From Mustelus asterias (Eukaryota), in NCBI RefSeq assembly GCF_964213995.1, contig NC_135808.1, positions 12,896,001 to 12,960,000 of the forward strand: DNA of 64,000 nucleotides. The letters run 5' to 3'. This document shows, in pieces, positions 8,682 through 59,588 of this stretch (its first letter is position 1; each line of letters starts with the position of its first letter). The notes beneath the pieces are model-generated. The model saw only the letters and a list, made by a program, of their open reading frames with translations. It was not told where the DNA came from and searched no databases. The position numbers and the translations under genes were made by a program.

Positions 8682-9072
8682 TAGCTCAATCCATCACACA
8701 AACCAGCCTCCCATCCATTGAATCTGTCTGCACTTCCCGCTGCATCAGCAAAGCAGCCAGCATAATCAAAGACCCCATGCACCCCGGACATACTCTCTTC
8801 CACCTTCTTCCATCGAGAAAAAGATCCAAAAGTCTGAGGTCACATACCAACCGACTCAAGAACAGCTTCTTCCCTGCTGCCATTAGATTTTTGAATGGAC
8901 CTACCTCACACTAAGTTGATCTTTCTCTAAACCCTAGACTGTAACACTACATTCTGCACTCTCTCGTTTCCTTCTCTGTGTACGGTATGCTTTGTCTGTG
9001 TAGCGCGCAAGAGACAACACTTTTCACTGTATACTAATACATGTGACAATAATATATCAAATCAAATCAAAA
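8682..9072 (+). mobile_element. Rex1/Babar-type LINE 3' fragment
   Basis: AQSITQTSLPSIES..SRC..KAASIIKDP.HPGHTLFHLLPS.KR..SLRSHTNRLKNSFFP.AIR.LN C-terminus; tail GTGACAATAAT..(ATCAA)n. Extra tail copies at ~8110-8270(+), 40702-40768(-), 62606-62840(-). Confidence 0.8.
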
Positions 9073-9355
9073 ACAATCATAAGTTTAATTGAAAAAATTG
9101 TTCTGCTACATAACACTTTTAAAAATGTTGTCCAACCAGATCTTTGTACGGCCAAACCTATAATTACTTGGCAATGCCTTATCCTGTATAAATAAACACT
9201 AAAGCCATTGACAAAAGCGATCAAAGATAAAAGAGTTTATCACCATAACTGTTCACCTTCTCCCTAACTGTGTTATCAACACAATTAATCCTTTTATGGG
9301 AGGCTGAGCTGTCAGCTAATTCTCATTAGGAATTGGGAAGGGTTTAAAATAACTT

Positions 9356-9544
9356 TGTAAGAAGTTTAACAACACCAGGTTAAAGTCCAACAGGTTTATT
9401 TGGTAGCAAACGCCACACAAGCTTTCGGAGCCCCAAGCCCCTTCTTCAGGTGAGTGGGAATTCTGTTCACAAACAGGGCTTTAACCTGGTGTTGTTTAAC
9501 TTCTTACTGTGTTTACCCCAGTCCAACGCCGGCATCTCCACACC
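9356..9544 (-). mobile_element. Short Penelope-like element insertion with inverted tail and 13-bp TSD (TTTAAAATAACTT)
   Basis: TSD at 9343-9355 and 9545-9557; PLE terminal repeat GTAAGAAG..AACACCAGGTTAAAGTCCAACAGG; inverted segment ending CCAACGCCGGCATCTCCAC. Confidence 0.85.
9416..9452 (-). ncRNA. Minimal type I hammerhead ribozyme motif (Penelope-associated)
   Basis: Minus strand reads cac-CUGAAGA-aGGGGC-uuggg-GCUCC-GAAA-gc-UU-gug: intact core, stems I and II, and palindromic AGCU stem III. Confidence 0.75.
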
Positions 9545-10092
9545 TTTAAAATAACTTAGCAGGGGTTGGGCACCAGGAGGTAAAATTAGAGAGGAAATCC
9601 AAGGTACTCAAAGATTTAGGAGAGACAGAGATAACACTGAAGAAAGAAATAATAAAGCAGAGTCAGAGTAAGAGGGAATAGAATGCTATATTTTGTTGCA
9701 GCTATGTGAATGCCTGGAGTGTGGTAAATAGGTTGGTGCAGGCACGGCTAGCCAAATGGGAATCTGTCTGATGATAATGCAGACCTGGGTCAAAAAAGGG
9801 CAAGAATGGGTAGCAAATAATCTGGGATACAGCAAAGACCAGAAAGGAGAAAAAGATGGAGAGTTGGCAGTGATGGAGGAGAGAGGGTGTCCCATTGGGA
9901 TTAAGGTCAGTTCATTAGAGTGAAGAAACAGTACAGGTACCAATACACCACTGGACGTACATTATAAAATCACCAAGTCAAGATATAGAGGAAGACATTT
10001 ACAGAAGTGCAAAGAATATTTAGTATAAAACAGGGGCTTGAATGAAGACTAAGATAGCAACAATGTAAAGGGCAAAGTGGTGAAGAGTTTAA

Positions 10093-22781: not shown

Positions 22782-23728
22782 CATGATGTAGAGATGCCGG
22801 CGTTAGACTGGGGTAAACAGAGTAAGAAGTCTCACAACACCAGGTTAAAGTCTAACAGATTTATTTAGTAGCAAAAGCCACTAGCTTTTGGAGCGCTGCC
22901 CCTTCATCAGGTGAGTGGGATTTCAGTTCACAAACAGGGCATATAAAGACACAAACTCAATTTACAAAATAATGGTTGGAATGCGAGTCTTTACAGGTGA
23001 TCAAGTCTTAAAGGTACAGACAATGTGAGTGGAGAGAGGGTTGAGCACAGGTTAAAGAGGTGTGTATTGTCTCCAGCCAGGACAGTTAGTGAGATTTTGC
23101 AAGCCCAGGCAAGTCGTGGGGGTTACAGATAGTGTGACATGAACCCAAGATCCCGGTTGAGGCCGTCCTCATGTGTGCGGAACTTGGCTATCAGTCTCTG
23201 CTCAGCGACTCTGCGTTGTCGTGTGTCGTGAAGGCCACCTTGGAGAACACTTACCCGAAGATCAGAGGCTGAATGCCCGTGACCGCTGAAGTGTTCCCCA
23301 ACAGGAAGAGAACACTCTTGCCTGGCTCGCACCAACACAGAGTCGCTGAACAGAGACTGAAAGCCAAGTTCCGCACACATGAGGATGGCGTCAACCGGGA
23401 GCTTGGGTTCATGTCACACTATCTGTAACCCCCACGACTTGCCTGGGCTTGCAAAATCTCACTAACTGTCCTGGCTGGAGACAATACACATCTCTTTAAC
23501 CTGTGCTCAACCCTCTCTCCACTCACATTGTCTGTACCTTTCAGACTTGATTACCTGTAAAGACTCGCATTCCAACCATTATTTTGTAAATTGAGTTTGT
23601 GTCTTTATGTGCCCTGTTTGTGAACTGAAATCCCACTCACCTGATGAAGGAGCAGCGCTTCAAAAGCTAGTGGCTTTTGCGACCAAATAAATCTGTTGGA
23701 CTTTAACCTGGTGTTGTGAGACTTCTTA
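22782..23728. mobile_element. Penelope-like element: inverted (palindromic) pair of 3' terminal regions inserted into a V-SINE
   Basis: Left arm (minus) encodes a GIY-YIG C-terminus (VGEHFSGHGHSASDLRVSVLQGGLHDTRQRRVAEQRLIAKFRTHEDGLNRDLGFMSHY). Right arm (~23345-23728) is the reverse complement of ~22821-23200. Flanked by duplicated (A)CTGTGAGGC. Confidence 0.9.
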
Positions 23729-26199
23729 CTGTGAGGCAGCAGTGTTAACCTCTGTGCCAGCAAGTTTCAATTGTTGAAGGGGATTCCCATTTATATGATA
23801 TGGAACACGATTCAGCATGAACATGATTGTTACAAAACAAATGCTGCAATAACTACCTTTCTTTCCTTGCCTGCCAACAAATAATACAAAAGGCAGGAAA
23901 AGCTGCCTCGAGGCATTGCGTAACATCTGAGAACCAAACATTTAAGGTCGTGACATCCACAGAGTAGGCCGCCATCTGTTTGTGTAACTGGGTGGTTGTA
24001 AGTGCCACACCTGCAGTACCCTACAAGGGTGCCCCATACCCTGTTGTATCCCCTAACATCCAGTGGAAACTATCACAGCTGCTGAGGCAATCCTACCCTT
24101 CACTTCAGACATCTCAATATGTAGGTCAGATCTGCTTCAAACAATTGATTCAAATTTTATGCATCTATTTTTTTAATCTCAAATTAATCTTTGTGTGTGA
24201 GTCATACACTTTCCTTAGTAACACGCAGAGAAAGTATGAACAAGTAAAGCAACCTTTCATTTACAGGATGTGGGAGGCCTATATTTATTGCCTATCTCTA
24301 ATTGCCTGTCATTTAAGAGCAACCACATTCCTGTGGATCTGGAGTCACATGTATCAGAAAATCATAGAATTCCTACAGTGCAAAAAGAGGTCTTTCAGCC
24401 CATCAGGCTTGTACTGACAACAATCCCACACAGGCCCTTAACCTGTAACCCTATATATTTACCCTGCTAATTTCCTCGACACCAAGGGTGGAATTTTCCC
24501 GTTCCACCCACGATGGGAATCGTCACAGGCAGGACAGGGCAATTCAAAGGCTCGTTGACCTCAGGCGGGATTTTCCAGTCTTGGGCGAATGTGGCTGGAA
24601 AATCCTGCTTTATGGATCAATTTAGCATGGCCAATCCATCTAACCTGCACATGAAACTTATAATCATAGAATCCCTACAGTTCAGAAGAAGGCTATTCAG
24701 CCAATCGAGCTTGCTCCAACTACAACCCACCCAGCCCCAATCCCCATAACCCCATGCATCTTACCCGGCTAATCCCCCTAATTTATAAATCTTGGGACAC
24801 GAAGAGGCAATTTAGCATGGCCAATCAACCTGCACATCTTTGGACTGTGGGAGGAAACCGGAGCACCTGGAGGAAACCCACAGAGACACGGGGAGAACAT
24901 GCAAATTCCACACAGCCAAGGCTGGAATTGAACCTGGGGCCCTGGCGCTGTGAGGCAGCAGTGCTAACCACTGTGCCACCATCTTTGCACCATCTCGCAG
25001 ACGTGAGGAGAATGTGCAAACTCCACACAGACAGTGACCCAAGGCAGGAATTGAACCCAGGTCCCTGGTGCTGTGAGGCAGCAGTGCTAATCACTATGCC
25101 AAGGCCAGGCCAGGCCAGATGAGAATGATAGATTTTCTACTCTAAAGGGCACTCCAGATTTACGACATTGGTTCATGGTCATCATTAGACATTTAATTCC
25201 AGATTTGCCTTGAATTCAAATTCCACCATCTGCCATGGTAGGATTTGAACCCAGGTCCCCAGAGTTTGACTCTGGTTCTCTGGATTCTTAGTCCCGTGAC
25301 AATATCACCCTTTGTTGCTGGGTTATTTTCAATTGACGCCCTCACTCCAATGATAAGAAACCCAGGTTCAATCCCGGCCTTGGGTGACTGCCTGCATGGG
25401 GTTTGCACATTCTCCTATTAACATCCAAATTACACTGACTGACGGGGGAAAGATGTCGTAGAGCATTTAACCCCCACATGACCACAACCACAAACCAGAA
25501 GTTTGTTAGGTCAGGTGTTAGCTCACTCAGGATTCAAATTTCTACATTGATGGAGTGGGATGCATTAATTGCGGATCCTTGAGAGGTGTCGATAGCACTC
25601 CTAACTTCCTGTTGGATTGCTTTACTCAATGGGCATGACTTCCCAGTTTGGTTACTGTGGAAATGGGTTGGTCCCCAATTTGTCCCAATGCACATCGGAT
25701 ACCGTTGCTCGCAGGTGGTTGGTTAGCTTTGGAGATTCCTCATAAACCTCGCCATCGCTTTTAAGAAAACATGTAAACCCCACCTATTCACCAACTCTGT
25801 TTCAATAGTCCAGAACCAGGGGGTCATTGTTTGAGGATAAGGGGCAAACCTTATAGAACTGAGGTGAGAAGAAATTTCTTCACCCAGAGGGTGGTGAATG
25901 TGTAGAATTCATTACCACAGGAAGTTGCTGGGGCCAAAACGTTGTGTGATTTCAAGAAGAAATTAGATATAGCTCTTGGGGCTAAAGGGATCAAGGGATA
26001 TGGGGGTAAGCGGGGATCAGGATAATTGAATTTGATGATCAGCCATGATCAAAATTAATGGCAGAGCAGGCTTGAGGGGCTGAATGGCCTACTCCTGCTT
26101 CTAGTTTCTTTGTTACAATATCTCCGGTTACAGCTTACTGTTAAGATAATAATCAGAGGAAACAGCTTGTGAAGTTCTACCACATTAAATTGCAGCACG

Positions 26200-38561: not shown

Positions 38562-39002
38562 CTCTCCGGGTACGCGTTCTCCAAGGCGGCCTTCACGACA
38601 CACGACAGCGCAGAGTCGCTGAGCAGAGACTGATAGCCAGGTTACGCACACATGAGGACAGCCTCAACCGGGATATTGGGTTCATGTCACGCTATCTGTA
38701 ACCCCCACAACTTGCCTGGATGTGCAAAATCTCACTAGCTGTCCTGTCTGGAGACAATACACCTCTCTAACCTGTGCTTAATGCTCCCTCCACTCACATT
38801 GTCTGTACCTTTAAGACTTGATTAGATGTAAAGACTCACATTCCAATCATTATTCATGTAAATTGAGTTTGTGTCTTTGTGCCCTGTTTGTGAACAGAAC
38901 TCCCACCCATCTGATGAAGGAACAGCCTGTTCCGAAAGCGAGTGGCTTTTGCGACCAAATAAACCTGTTGGACTTTAACCTGGTGTTGTTAGACTTCTTA
39001 CA
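38562..39002 (+). mobile_element. Penelope-like element 3' end (GIY-YIG C-terminus plus terminal repeat with hammerhead remnant)
   Basis: LRVRVLQGGLHDTRQRRVAEQRLIARLRTHEDSLNRDIGFMSRYL*; CUGAUGA-aGGAAC-agccu-GUUCC-GAAA at ~38911-38937. Confidence 0.88.
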
Positions 39003-50178: not shown

Positions 50179-51820
50179 TTAACGATAGTCAACATGGTTT
50201 TGTGAGAGGGAGGTCATGCCTCACTAACCTGGTGGTGTTTTTTGAAGAAGTGACCAAAATGGTTGACGAAGGAAGGGCCGTGGATGTTGTCTATATGGAC
50301 TTTAGTAAAGCGTTTGACAAAGTCCCTCATGGTAGGCTAGTGAAAAAGGTTGGATCCCATGGGATAAAGGGGGAGGTGGCTAGATGGGTGGAGAACTGGC
50401 TTGGTCATAGAAGACAGAGGGTGGTAGTGCAAGGGTCTTTTTCCGGCTGGAGGCCTGTGACTAGTGGTGTACCGCAGGGCTCTGTATTGGGACCTCTGCT
50501 GTTTGTGATTTATATAAATGATCTGGAAGAAGGAGTAACTGGGGTGATCAGTAAGTTTGCGGACGACACAAAACTGGCAGGACTTGCAGATAGTGAGGAA
50601 CATTGTCAGAGGCTACAGAAGGATATAGATAGGCTGGTAATTTGGGCAAAGAAATGGCAGATGGAGTTCAATCCTGATAAATGCGAAGTGATACATTTTG
50701 GTGGGAATAATGTAAGGAGGAGCTACACGATAAATGGAAGAACCATAAAGGGTGTAGAGACGCAGAGGGACCTGGGTGTGCAAGTCCACAGATCTTTGAA
50801 GGTGACGTCACAGGTGGAGAAGGTGGTGAAGAAGGCATATGGCATGCTTGCCTTTATAGGACGGGGCATAGAGTATAAAAGTTGGGGTCTGATGTTGCAG
50901 ATGTATAGAACGTTGGTTCGGCCGCAATTGGAATACTGCGTCCAGTTCTGGTCGCCACACTACCAGAAGGACGTGGAGGCTTTGGAGAGAGTACAGAGGA
51001 GGTTTACCAGGATGTTGCCTGGTATGGAGGGGCTTGGGTATGAGGAGAGATTGGGGAAACTGGGGTTGTTCTCCTTGGAAAGACGGAGGATGAGGGGAGA
51101 CTTAATAGAGGTGTATAAAATTATGAAAGGCATAGATAGGGTGAACGGTGGGAAGCTTTTCCCTGGGTCGGTGGTGACGTTCACGAGGGGTCATAGGTTC
51201 AAGGTGAAGGGGGGGAGGTTTAACACAGATATCAGAAGGACATATTTCACACAGAGGGTCGTGGGGGCCTGGAATGTGTTGCCGGGCAAGGTGGTGGAGG
51301 CGGACACACTGGGAACGTTTAAGACTTATCTAGACAGCTATATGAACGGAGTGGGAATGGAGGGATACAAAAGAGTGGTCTAGTTTGGACCAGGGAGCGG
51401 CGCGGGCTAATTGTTCCTTGTTTCTCGTGGAAGTGGAAATGACTAGGGTTGGGAAGCATTTTCCGATCAGGGCCATTGTGATCTCCTGGACTCGTTTCGA
51501 TCGCCTCAGGGGGTCGGAGAGGAATTTCCCAGATTTTTTTTTCCCCATATTGGCCCTGGGGTTTTTCACTCTGGGTTTTCGCCTCTCCCTGGAGATCACA
51601 TGGTCTGGAATGGGGGGGTGGGGGTGAGTTAATAGGTTGTAATGAACAAAGCATCGTAGCTGTGGGGGACAGCTCGGTGGATAGGATATTGGTATGTAGA
51701 TAGGCTGGAAAATTGGGCGGGGATCCTGGATTCAGGATTCAATCCTGGACCGGGGAGCGGCGCGGGCTTGGAGGGCCGAAGGGCCTGTTCCTGTGCTGTA
51801 TTGTTCTTTGTTCTTTGTTT
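50179..51820 (+). mobile_element. Young 5'-truncated CR1 LINE (open RT ORF 50202-51383) with extended 3' UTR
   Basis: DFSKAFDKVPH, GVPQGSVLGP, FADD; tail (TTCTTTG)n; nearly identical to the inverted copy at 55.85-57.87 kb. Confidence 0.96.
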
Positions 51821-55849: not shown

Positions 55850-57875
55850 AAGAACAAAAGAACAAAGAACAATACAGCACAGGAACAGGCCCTTCGGCCC
55901 TCCAAGCCCGCGCCGCTCCCCGGTCCAGGATTGAATCCTGAATCCAGGATCCCCGCCCAATTTTCCAGCCTATCTACATACTAATATCCTATCCACCGAG
56001 CTGTCCCTCACAGCTACGATGCTTTGTTCATCACAACCTATTAACTATCCCCCACCCCCCCATTTCAGACCATGTGATCTCCAGGGAGAGGCGAAAACCC
56101 AGAGTGAAAACCCCAGGGCCAATATGGGGAAAAAAAAACTGGGAAATTCCTCTTCGACCCCCTGAGGCGATCGAAACGAGTCCAGGAGATCACACTGGCC
56201 CTGATCGGAAAATGCTTTCCAACCCTATTCATTTCCACTTCCACGAACACCATATGAATTCCCTGCCCCCGAGACAGGTTCCCAACTATCCACAGTCTCG
56301 CTCTGTACTGGCACCAGCAAGATGATCATAGAATGAAGCCTTGAAACGAGAAACAACGAACAATTAGCCCGCGCCGCTCCCTGGTCCAAACTAGACCACT
56401 CTTCTGTATCCCTCCATTCCCACTCCGTTCATATAGCTGTCTAGATAAGTCTTAAACGTTCCCAGTGTGTCCGCCTCCACCACCTTGCCCGGCAACACAT
56501 TCCAGGCCCCCACGACCCTCTGTGTAAAATATGTCCTTCTGATATCTGTGTTAAACCTCCCCCCCTTCACCTTGAACCTATGACCCCTCGTGAACGTCAC
56601 CACCGACCCGGGGAAAAGCTTCCCACCGTTCACCCTATCCATGCCTTTCATAATTTTATACACCTCTATTAAGTCTCCCCTCATCCTCCGTCTTTCCAAG
56701 GAGAACAACCCCAGTTTCCCCAATCTCTCCTCATAACCAAGCCCCTCCATACCAGGCAACATCCTGGTAAACCTCCTCTGTACTCTCTCCAAAGCCTCCA
56801 CGTCCTTCTGGTAGTGTGGCGACCAGAACTGGACGCAGTATTCCAAATGCGGCCGAACCGACGTTCTATACATCTGCAACATCAGACCCCAACTTTTATA
56901 CTCTATGCCCCGTCCTATAAAGGCAAGCATGCCATATGCCTTCTTCACCACCTTCTCCACCTGTGACGTCACCTTCAAAGATCTGTGGACCTGCACACCC
57001 AGGTCCCTCTGCGTCTCTACACCCTTTATGGTTCTTCCATTTATCATGTAGCTCCTCCCTACATTATTCCCACCAAAATGCATCACTTCGCATTTATCAG
57101 GATTGAACTCCATCTGCCATTTCCTTGCCCAAATTTCCAGCCTATCTATATCCTTCTGTAGCCTCTGACAATGTTCCTCACTATCTGCAAGTCCTGCCAG
57201 TTTTGTGTCGTCCGCAAACTTACTGATCACCCCGGTTACTCCTTCTTCCAGATCATTTATATAAATCACAAACAGCAGAGGTCCCAATACAGAGCCCTGC
57301 GGTACACCACTAGTCACAGGCCTCCAGCCAGAAAAAGACCCTTCCACTACCACCCTCTGTCTTCTATGACCAAGCCAGTTCTCCACCCATCTAGCCACCT
57401 CCCCCTTTATCCCATGAGATCCAACCTTTTTCACTAGCCTACCATGAGGGACTTTGTCAAACGCTTTACTAAAGTCCATATAGACAACATCCACGGCCCT
57501 TCCTTCGTCAACCATTTTGGTCACTTCTTCAAAAAACACCACCAGGTTAGTGAGGCATGACCTCCCTCTCACAAAACCATGCTGACTATCGTTAATAAGT
57601 TTATTCCTTTCTAAATGCGCATACATCCTATCTCTAAGAATCTTCTCCAACAACTTCCCCACCACGGACGTCAAGCTCACCGGCCTATAATTACCCGGGT
57701 TATCCTTCCTACCCTTCTTAAATAACGGGACCACATTGGCTATCCTCCAATCCTCTGGGACCTCACCTGTGTCCAGTGACGAGACAAAGATTTGCGTCAG
57801 AGGCCCAACGATTTCACCTCTCGTCTCCCTGAGCAGCCTTGGATAGATTCCATCAGGCCCTCGGGATTTGTCAGT
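55850..57875 (-). mobile_element. Young 5'-truncated CR1 LINE (open RT ORF 56391-57734), same subfamily as 50179-51820
   Basis: NYRPVSLTS, QHGF, DFSKAFDKV, FADD; same extended 3' UTR, here about 105 bp longer. Confidence 0.96.
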
Positions 57876-59588
57876 CGCCCTGCTCCTGCTCCCACTTTCG
57901 AATGGTACCCTTTATTTTATATTGTCTCTGTGCACATGGGCGGAACAGTGGTTAGCACCGCTGCCTCACAGCGCCAGAGACCTTGGTTCAGTTCCAGCTT
58001 TGAGTGTCAGTCTGTGTGGAGTTTGCACGTTCTCCCTGTGTCTGTGTGGGTTTCCTCCGGGTGCTCCGGTTTCCTCCCACAGTCCAAAGATGTGCGAGTT
58101 AGGATGATTGGCCATGCTAAATTGATTCTTAGTGTCAGGGGGATTAATAGGGTAAACATTTAAGGTTCCGGGGATAGGGTCTGGGCGGGATTGTTGTTGG
58201 TGCAGGCTCGATGGGCCGATTGGCCGCTTCCTGCACTGTAGGGATTCTATGATCTCTTTAAAAAAAAGCAAACTGCCTTTAATTTCAGCTGCCACTTGTC
58301 TGCTCATTGCACCAACCTGTCCACGACAGTCCTTTTGAAATGCTCCACTATCCTCCTCACACTGCACGATGCTTCCAAATTTCAAAATTCATGCACCATA
58401 GACTAAGATCTCGGTCATTAAAATATATCAGAAAAGCAAGGGTCCCAACATTAACTCCTGGGGAACTCCACTACAACCCTCCTCCAGTCGGAAAAGCATC
58501 CAATAAGCATCATCCTCTGTTTCTCAGTCAGTTTTGTACCCATGTTGTTACTTCCCCTTTTATTCCATGTGCTCCACCTCTGGTCACAAATGTGTTGTGT
58601 AACACTGTTTCAATTGCCTTTTGGAAGTCCATGAACACCATATCAACTCTCTGCTCAGAATTCTGCTGAACAGGCATTGCAGGATTTCAAGGTTCCTGGG
58701 ATCCGGGGCGGCTCAATGGCACAGTGGCTAGCACTGCTGCCTCACAGCTCCAGGGACCTGAGTTCAATTCCCAGCTTGGGTCACTGTCTGTGCGGAGTTT
58801 GCACGTTCTCCCCATGGATGCGTGAGTTTCTTCCAGGTACTCCGGTTTCCTCCCACAGTCCAAAGATGTGCGGGTTAGGTTGATTGGCCATGCTAAATTG
58901 CCCCTTGGGGTCCCGGGATGTGTAGGTTAGAGGGATTAGTGGGGTAAATGTGTGATGTTGTGGGGATAGGACCGGGGGGTGGGATTGTTGCCAGTGCAGA
59001 TTCGATGGGCCGAATGACCTCCTTCTGCACCGTAGGGATTCTAAAGCAGCTTTGGTATCCCCTAATACCCTGCTGAGTCTGTCCATGGTGCATTCATTTA
59101 TTGGCTGTGATAGTCTGAGGATGTGAATCACAGCATAGTCTTTGTACTTCATGCTGGCTGCTTTACATGGAAGTTACAGCACTGAAGCATAACAGTAGCA
59201 GGTAATGGTAGAAGTTGCACAGAAGTAGGCCATTCGGCCCACCTCACCTATGTTTACGTTCCACATTAGCCTCCTTCATGTTTACACTATCAGGGTAACC
59301 TTCAGCTTCTTTCTTCAGCGTCTGTTAATCAAGTTGCTTGAATGTATCTGTACTAGAATCATAGAATGGTTACAGCACAGAAGGAGGCCACTCAGCACAT
59401 TTTCTTCACATTAGTTGTCTGCAACTGCAGCTCAGCTAGTCCCACTCCTCGACCTTTTCCCTGTAGCCCCCAGTTGGATCTGTCTCCACCACACGCTTGG
59501 GTAGTGCATTCCAGATCCAAAACACTTGTTGCATGAAGAAGTTTTTCCTCATGTCACCTCTGGTTCTTTTGTTAATCACCTTAATGTT

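Follow-up and report, generated by a model that had tools for sequence, protein, structure and literature searches.

Described ENEs and CR1 3' untranslated regions

ENEs bind poly(A) as U-A.U triples by means of opposed U-runs between helices (PMC7583470, in part). The ENE of Evade contains four U-tracts with G-C pairs alongside; it raises mobility, and its deletion lowers both RNA stability and mobility (PMC12501189, in part). In the available portion of an ENE review, stickleback retroviruses are the only animal transposon ENE named. CR1 elements are the dominant retrotransposons in most vertebrates (PMC13343379, in part), and the examined CR1 papers, as far as their excerpts extend, describe 3' UTRs with a terminal hairpin and a microsatellite only. 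A search of the open-access literature revealed neither an ENE nor the core fold described below in CR1.

Analysis of a 64,000-nucleotide stretch of DNA from the shark Mustelus asterias (the window) revealed a CR1-type element with an insert in its 3' UTR. We consider the chances evenly balanced that this 440-nt insert carries an ENE-like poly(A) clamp and was gained once, recently, by a CR1 master, likely from the 3' UTR RNA of an older CR1 lineage.

The predicted core of the insert resembles the double-domain ENE of plant and fungal transposons, such as the rice hAT element TWIFB1, and the Arabidopsis Evade/Copia93 ENE in its two U-rich internal loops with a short duplex between them, in its short 3'-strand bulges, and in its location within a mobile element, between the ORF and the 3' end (PMC7583470, PMC12501189, and PMC13541005, each in part). 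Unlike these ENEs, it belongs to an animal non-LTR element that encodes neither poly(A) nor a signal, it is built on a three-way junction, and its lower loop is short and carries AA on the 5' side. The junction and an invariant hairpin (P2) are not described ENE hallmarks. The stem/U-run/stem hairpin of the KSHV PAN ENE and of the MALAT1/MENbeta triple helices is a further parallel, to which tandem units in tetrapod-type homologues (see below) come closest; unlike those RNAs, the shark element has no downstream A-rich tract and no Rfam match to MALAT1 or PAN. Stringent LINEs of the CR1/L2 type likewise have structured 3' UTR RNA, namely, a conserved 3' hairpin with a microsatellite (PMC4316615 and PMC4176376, in part). 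Unlike that terminal hairpin, the core is a separate, dispensable part some 210 nt before the end, and the element has its own tail at 51769-51818.

Host element and insert

The window is part of a 3.68-Gb genome and is rich in tRNA-type SINEs and LINE ends. Two copies of the subfamily were found in it, with the following features.

50181..51383, + strand: 3' part of the CR1-type ORF2 (reverse transcriptase) of copy 1; 400 open codons; Pfam RVT_1, E value 3e-26
51386..51408, + strand: 5' 23-bp repeat, two bases past the ORF2 stop; A allele, as in the insert-less ancestor
51409..51477, + strand: 5' part of the insert, variable; copy 1 is without 103 nt that most copies have
51478..51599, + strand: conserved core, 122 nt, from the predicted fold, pair counts, and covariance model
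51600..51745, + strand: 3' part of the insert, with a 25-nt ORF2-like piece at 51694-51718
51746..51768, + strand: 3' 23-bp repeat; G allele
51769..51818, + strand: ordinary CR1 3' tail with hairpin (51770-51791) and TTCTTTG-type microsatellite, common to other CR1s in the window
55850..57911, - strand: copy 2, same subfamily; 506 open codons (56391-57911), long-form insert, core at 56074-56193

Copy 1 is 5' truncated, and its ORF2 stop lies at 51381-51383. Its hairpin and microsatellite tail is also present on five other LINE ends in the window. The host element shows the hallmarks of CR1-type non-LTR elements, namely, the RT domain, the 3' hairpin plus microsatellite tail, and 5' truncation. 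We tentatively place it in the CR1 clade on comparison by eye with the supplement of PMC4316615 (in part). Copies 1 and 2 also form an inverted pair (50179-51428 and 56346-57595) that is 98% complementary over 1,250 nt, with the copies 4.9 kb apart.

The 23-bp direct repeats that the original prediction placed after the ORF2 stop were confirmed in copy 1 and found in copy 2 as well (56388-56366 and 55927-55905, minus strand); the rough chance expectation for such a pair is 3e-5. In 30 genome copies, every exact 5' repeat carried A (16/16) and every exact 3' repeat carried G (19/19). This result indicates that the A/G mismatch belongs to the master element, as had been proposed. The insert, predicted at about 340 bp, measures 337 nt in copy 1 and about 440 nt in its usual form, and the five other CR1 tails in the window are without it. 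Copy 2 was claimed to hold the same module and mismatch, and both are present there; the length differs, owing to the 103 nt that copy 1 is without. This deletion, which spares the core, was found in 5 of 90 copies in total.

The 23-bp duplication suggests that the insert entered by way of reverse transcriptase, either as a nested insertion or through a template jump. The 25-nt piece near the 3' end of the insert shares 23 of its 25 bases with the ORF2 of the element itself, and a looser collinear ORF2 match around it spans about 150 nt (score of 89 versus 81 for the best of 500 shuffles). This piece would fit template jumping. The 5' part of the insert was considered as the end of a donor ORF2 and rejected, the match being no better than with shuffles.

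Predicted fold of the core

Folding of positions 51455 to 51615 gave a predicted energy of -68.8 kcal/mol (z = -3.5), and 2 of 200 shuffles were equally stable. In a sliding-window scan of the sense strand, the best folding scores were those of the core (z = -3.1) and of the terminal tail region (z = -2.7). The following parts, all on the + strand, were predicted.

51478-89/51588-99, + strand: helix P1
51498-505/51510-16, + strand: helix P2
51517-22/51582-87, + strand: helix P3
51523-27/51576-81, + strand: lower U-rich loop
51528-33/51570-75, + strand: helix P4
51534-42/51562-69, + strand: upper U-rich loop
51543-47/51557-61, + strand: helix P5

In this predicted structure, P1 closes a three-way junction from which a short hairpin (P2) and a long arm (P3 to P5) with two U-rich internal loops emerge. 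The nested helices that had been paired by eye are contained in the minimum free energy fold, with mean pair probabilities of 0.80-0.91. The helix at 51498-51516, which makes the base a three-way junction, and both U-rich internal loops had been missed. The description of the module as highly structured holds for the 122-nt core and not for the whole insert.

The upper loop of the predicted fold opposes a run of 8 to 9 U's to one of 4 to 5, and the lower loop opposes 3 U's to 4. G-C pairs close three of the four U-tract sides, the upper loop being closed below by A-U. An AA dinucleotide is positioned between the 5' U-run of the lower loop and P3. Only the young subfamily has two loops split by the 6-bp P4; the tetrapod-type rows have a single loop.

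The basis of the ENE-like reading is that U-runs face each other between G-C-rich helices close to the 3' terminus of a mobile-element RNA. In the proposed course of events, a CR1 master would have gained the 440-nt insert once, between a 23-bp duplication in its 3' UTR, and the likely template of the insert would have been 3' UTR RNA from an older CR1 lineage. The predicted 122-nt core, with its three-way junction and two U-rich internal loops, would likely bind the transcript's poly(A) tail through these loops as U-A.U triples, and clamping of the poly(A) would slow deadenylation and decay. Triplex formation, RNA stabilization, and any gain in retrotransposition from the core are predicted only.

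Several features argue against this reading. The lower loop has only 3 U's on its 5' side in the young element, and the invariant AA there might form pairs with the U's across the loop. The upper loop, canonical in appearance, is missing in the tetrapod-type rows and decayed in two old homologues (L214 and L180). The element has no encoded A-rich partner (longest run, 4 A's) and no polyadenylation signal; such a signal occurs in the 500 nt downstream of 9 of 28 copies. Since CR1s end in a microsatellite, a poly(A) tail in reach of the core is an assumption. The adenosine triad and the 3- to 4-nt lower bulge of the TWIFB1 type (PMC13541005 and PMC7583470, in part) are not matched, as 51478-51599 holds no AAA and the bulge measures 2 nt. 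The predicted anatomy is ENE-like but should not be called a TWIFB1-type double ENE.

The original prediction had named a ribozyme or a nuclease-resistant fold, but no ENE-like U-rich loop element, among the possible functions and had pointed to a crossing pair between 51468-75 and 51551-58. The complement exists; 6 bp of loop pairing could form (-10.8 kcal/mol for the duplex), and changes in either strand are G-U compatible. However, a nested partner at 51601-51606 competes for its 5' strand (p = 0.8-0.9), it shares two bases with the top helix, no compensatory changes were seen in it, and the pairing is not evident in L214, L180, or the tetrapod-type rows. The folding program cannot model pseudoknots, so that the crossing pair is unsupported rather than excluded. 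The proposed Rfam scan (Rfam 15) matched only a U1 RNA in the window and nothing in the insert. With five loci and E values of up to 10, nothing came near a gathering score, ribozymes, xrRNA, SECIS, and MALAT1 included. No core string of the hammerhead, HDV-loop, or twister type was found on either strand. Cleavage at this site would moreover separate the ORFs from the 3' tail, which stringent LINEs require (PMC4176376, in part, on zebrafish L2). We regard a self-cleaving ribozyme or an Xrn1-blocking pseudoknot formed via the crossing pair as highly improbable.

Homologues of the core and its probable donor class

Searching the shark's own genome with a pattern in which P2 was changed gave 36 matches; of 30 fetched, 29 were young copies, and one was the old homologue L180. 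A genome search with L180 then revealed the second old homologue, L214. The core of L214 lies about 120 nt behind a same-strand remnant of a CR1 ORF2 C terminus (profile E value of 3e-4; the best of 270 shuffled frames reached 2.2). More ORF2 remnants lie upstream at 34 to 37% identity, and a tail-like stretch was recognized by eye behind the core. This context points to an older, distant CR1 lineage as the donor class; the direct donor of the insert was not among the old homologues recovered in the genome. The ORF2 remnant of L180 is weak (E value of 0.24). Immediately 3' of the old core of L180 starts a piece of a different repeat family that contains RT-like remnants. No further old homologue was present in 428 kb of genome sequence, 200 kb of which was arbitrary.

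Among contigs of other organisms, those of organisms A and B span the whole insert and those of organism C span most of it, and those of organisms D and H do not cover it. The contigs of organisms E and G contain the core only, one of them differing at 11 positions over 159 nt and having dissimilar flanks. Since these contigs match no other part of the insert, only the 122-nt core is conserved. In one run recorded as RNA, a contig spans 135 nt of the core.

Pattern searches of metagenomes gave 37 matches, of which four (L036, L037, L042, and L065) are homologues and 33 are chance matches. The four form one multi-copy family in vertebrate-type DNA, presumably bird-like as judged by a CR1 tail, and have the single-loop version of the motif, which is followed in this tetrapod-type family by tandem units of about 172 nt. 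A covariance model built from three shark rows scored them at 27 to 32 bits (E values of 3e-6 to 6e-5), compared with 53 bits for L180 and at most 12.9 bits for the remaining 33 loci. A shark profile based on sequence only did not set the tetrapod-type loci apart from chance matches, so that the link to them rests on structure.

The original prediction had suggested a likeness to a motif in turtle and amphibian CR1 3' UTRs. The four vertebrate-type contigs partly bear out such a tetrapod link, but no CR1 is evident around the motif in these loci. An ORF2 match in L036 was considered as the host of the motif and rejected; it belongs to a separate CR1 ending about 740 nt upstream. The Xenopus consensus CR1-2_XT contains 14 nt identical to the tetrapod-type 3' strand, positioned at the trimmed ORF2/UTR border (supplement of PMC4316615, in part), and this identity is a hint only of a tetrapod CR1 link. 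Tetrapod-type patterns gave 0, 0, and 1 match in the shark's own genome versus 2 control matches. Viral contigs gave 0, 26, and 0 matches, the 26 being chance-like by eye and by fold energy. GTDB contigs gave 13 matches, none of which was prominent in the sequence profile, and the supplement of PMC11303007 gave none.

In L036, L037, and L042, the second tandem unit is a stem/U5-7 loop/stem hairpin without P2 and is nearer to a single-domain ENE than the shark core is. It is possible that the tandem units represent an ENE array in a vertebrate repeat or long noncoding RNA.

Compensatory changes and conservation

Comparison of the young element with L214 revealed three compensatory pairs, one in P1 and two in P2 (16 of 500 shuffles). 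When L180 and the tetrapod-type rows were added, four such pairs were found, two in P2 and two in P3; P3 was 100% paired, and slid controls were lower. P1 was left out of the count for the tetrapod-type rows because its columns are out of register there. Related rows can beat shuffles in this statistic, and as there are about three independent lineages, the covariation counts as support for helices P1 to P3, not as a significance test. The original prediction had taken the module for a conserved structured element acquired by young CR1s and had held that it would be a neutral captured fragment if homologues outside the subfamily and covariation were lacking. Both homologues and compensatory changes were found, which upholds the former view.

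The opposed U-runs are kept in all 7 homologue rows (2 to 4 U's and 4 to 7 U's), and the letters kept best across the rows are those of P2, P3, and AA. The latter, together with the short lower loop and an element without an A-rich partner or signal, would suit a functional RNA that forms no triplex with poly(A) and instead serves as a protein-binding, export, or translation element relying on the junction, AA, and invariant P2 bases. The U-runs would then be hinges or protein sites, perhaps with a contact between the P2 loop and the apical loop; by eye, several rows have 3 to 4 bp of complementarity linking the top of P2 with the apical loop. No covariation accompanies that contact, and it breaks down in L065 and L214. 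The conservation of opposed U-runs between G-C helices in 7/7 rows speaks against a triplex-free function, as do the tandem units of L036, L037, and L042, which retain only the hairpin with the U5-7 loop and have no P2. We consider this alternative rather unlikely.

In 90 young copies, common variants affected 9 sites in the 5' flank and 4 in the 3' flank; within the core they were confined to the P2 loop and the upper U-run and spared every stem except for one selected-for site, these copies having been picked by core patterns. Four of the 90 (L096, L113, L167, and L168) have a 14-nt deletion between short repeats. It takes away the 3' side of the upper loop, so that only one loop would be left.

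Copy number and history of the insert

A 30-mer from the core had 8,977 exact matches in the genome, and a looser pattern had 9,608; reversed controls had none. The insert is carried by about 9,000 to 9,600 genome copies. The sister CR1 without the insert (one repeat, A allele) gave 5,417 exact junction matches, compared with 6,707 for the filled 5' junction. A tree was built from 312 nt near the ORF2 end of 56 rows (33 filled, 21 close empty, and two older empty). The 33 filled copies formed one clade (100/98) nested among the 21 close empty copies, with the two older empty elements outside, in a tree whose bootstrap is not fully settled and whose root is a midpoint root. The median distance from the group majority was 0.6% for filled copies and 2.5% for empty copies. 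The single nested clade and the lower divergence of its members indicate that the insert was gained once, recently, and that it marks the youngest subfamily sampled. The module had been called swappable; this holds only in the sense of one gain from another lineage, and loss of the insert between the repeats was not seen (none of the 21 close empty copies lay within the filled clade). At L005, an old empty element, and at L116, the end of an older CR1 without the insert is immediately followed, in the same orientation, by a filled copy.

In ORF2, filled and insert-less forms show about 97% identity, and the insert is accompanied by 21 other differences within 636 nt at the ORF2 end. Because of these differences, and because the insert-less sisters also reached thousands of copies, an advantage conferred by the insert is hypothetical. 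The empty sisters transposed without the core, which is dispensable for transposition. The single gain, the prolific empty sisters, and the co-traveling ORF2 changes would also be expected of a passenger, that is, a structure functional in its donor and hitchhiking here with a master that succeeded for other reasons. Loss of 14 nt from the upper domain in 4/90 copies and the carrying along of unstructured flanks fit this as well. Against it stand the absence of common variants from stems versus 13 in flanks, a modest signal in copies picked by core patterns, the shared 103-nt deletion that spares the core, and the presence of the insert in all of the youngest copies sampled. We judge a passenger to be unlikely.

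A wider form of the poly(A) clamp reading is tentative and in our estimate falls short of probable. The core would belong to an uncatalogued motif family that predates the split of sharks and land vertebrates, resides in the 3' UTRs of CR1s, is exchanged among LINE lineages and arrays of host repeats, and acts as a poly(A) clamp. It would be the first ENE of an animal LINE, and its capture would have let one subfamily replace its ancestor. If true, ENE biology would extend from viruses, long noncoding RNAs, and plant and fungal elements to animal LINEs, and a conserved stability element would be a reason for one subfamily outrunning another. The genome offers a natural filled/empty pair as well as single-loop and deletion variants for direct comparison.

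Two other features of the window were observed. The U1 match at 39801-39964 (minus strand) is a full-length U1 snRNA gene or a recent copy (158.9 bits in Rfam). An inverted repeat at 22818-23218 and 23333-23733 has arms of 401 nt that are 96% complementary with 114 nt between them, and a related arm is located at 38563-38768.
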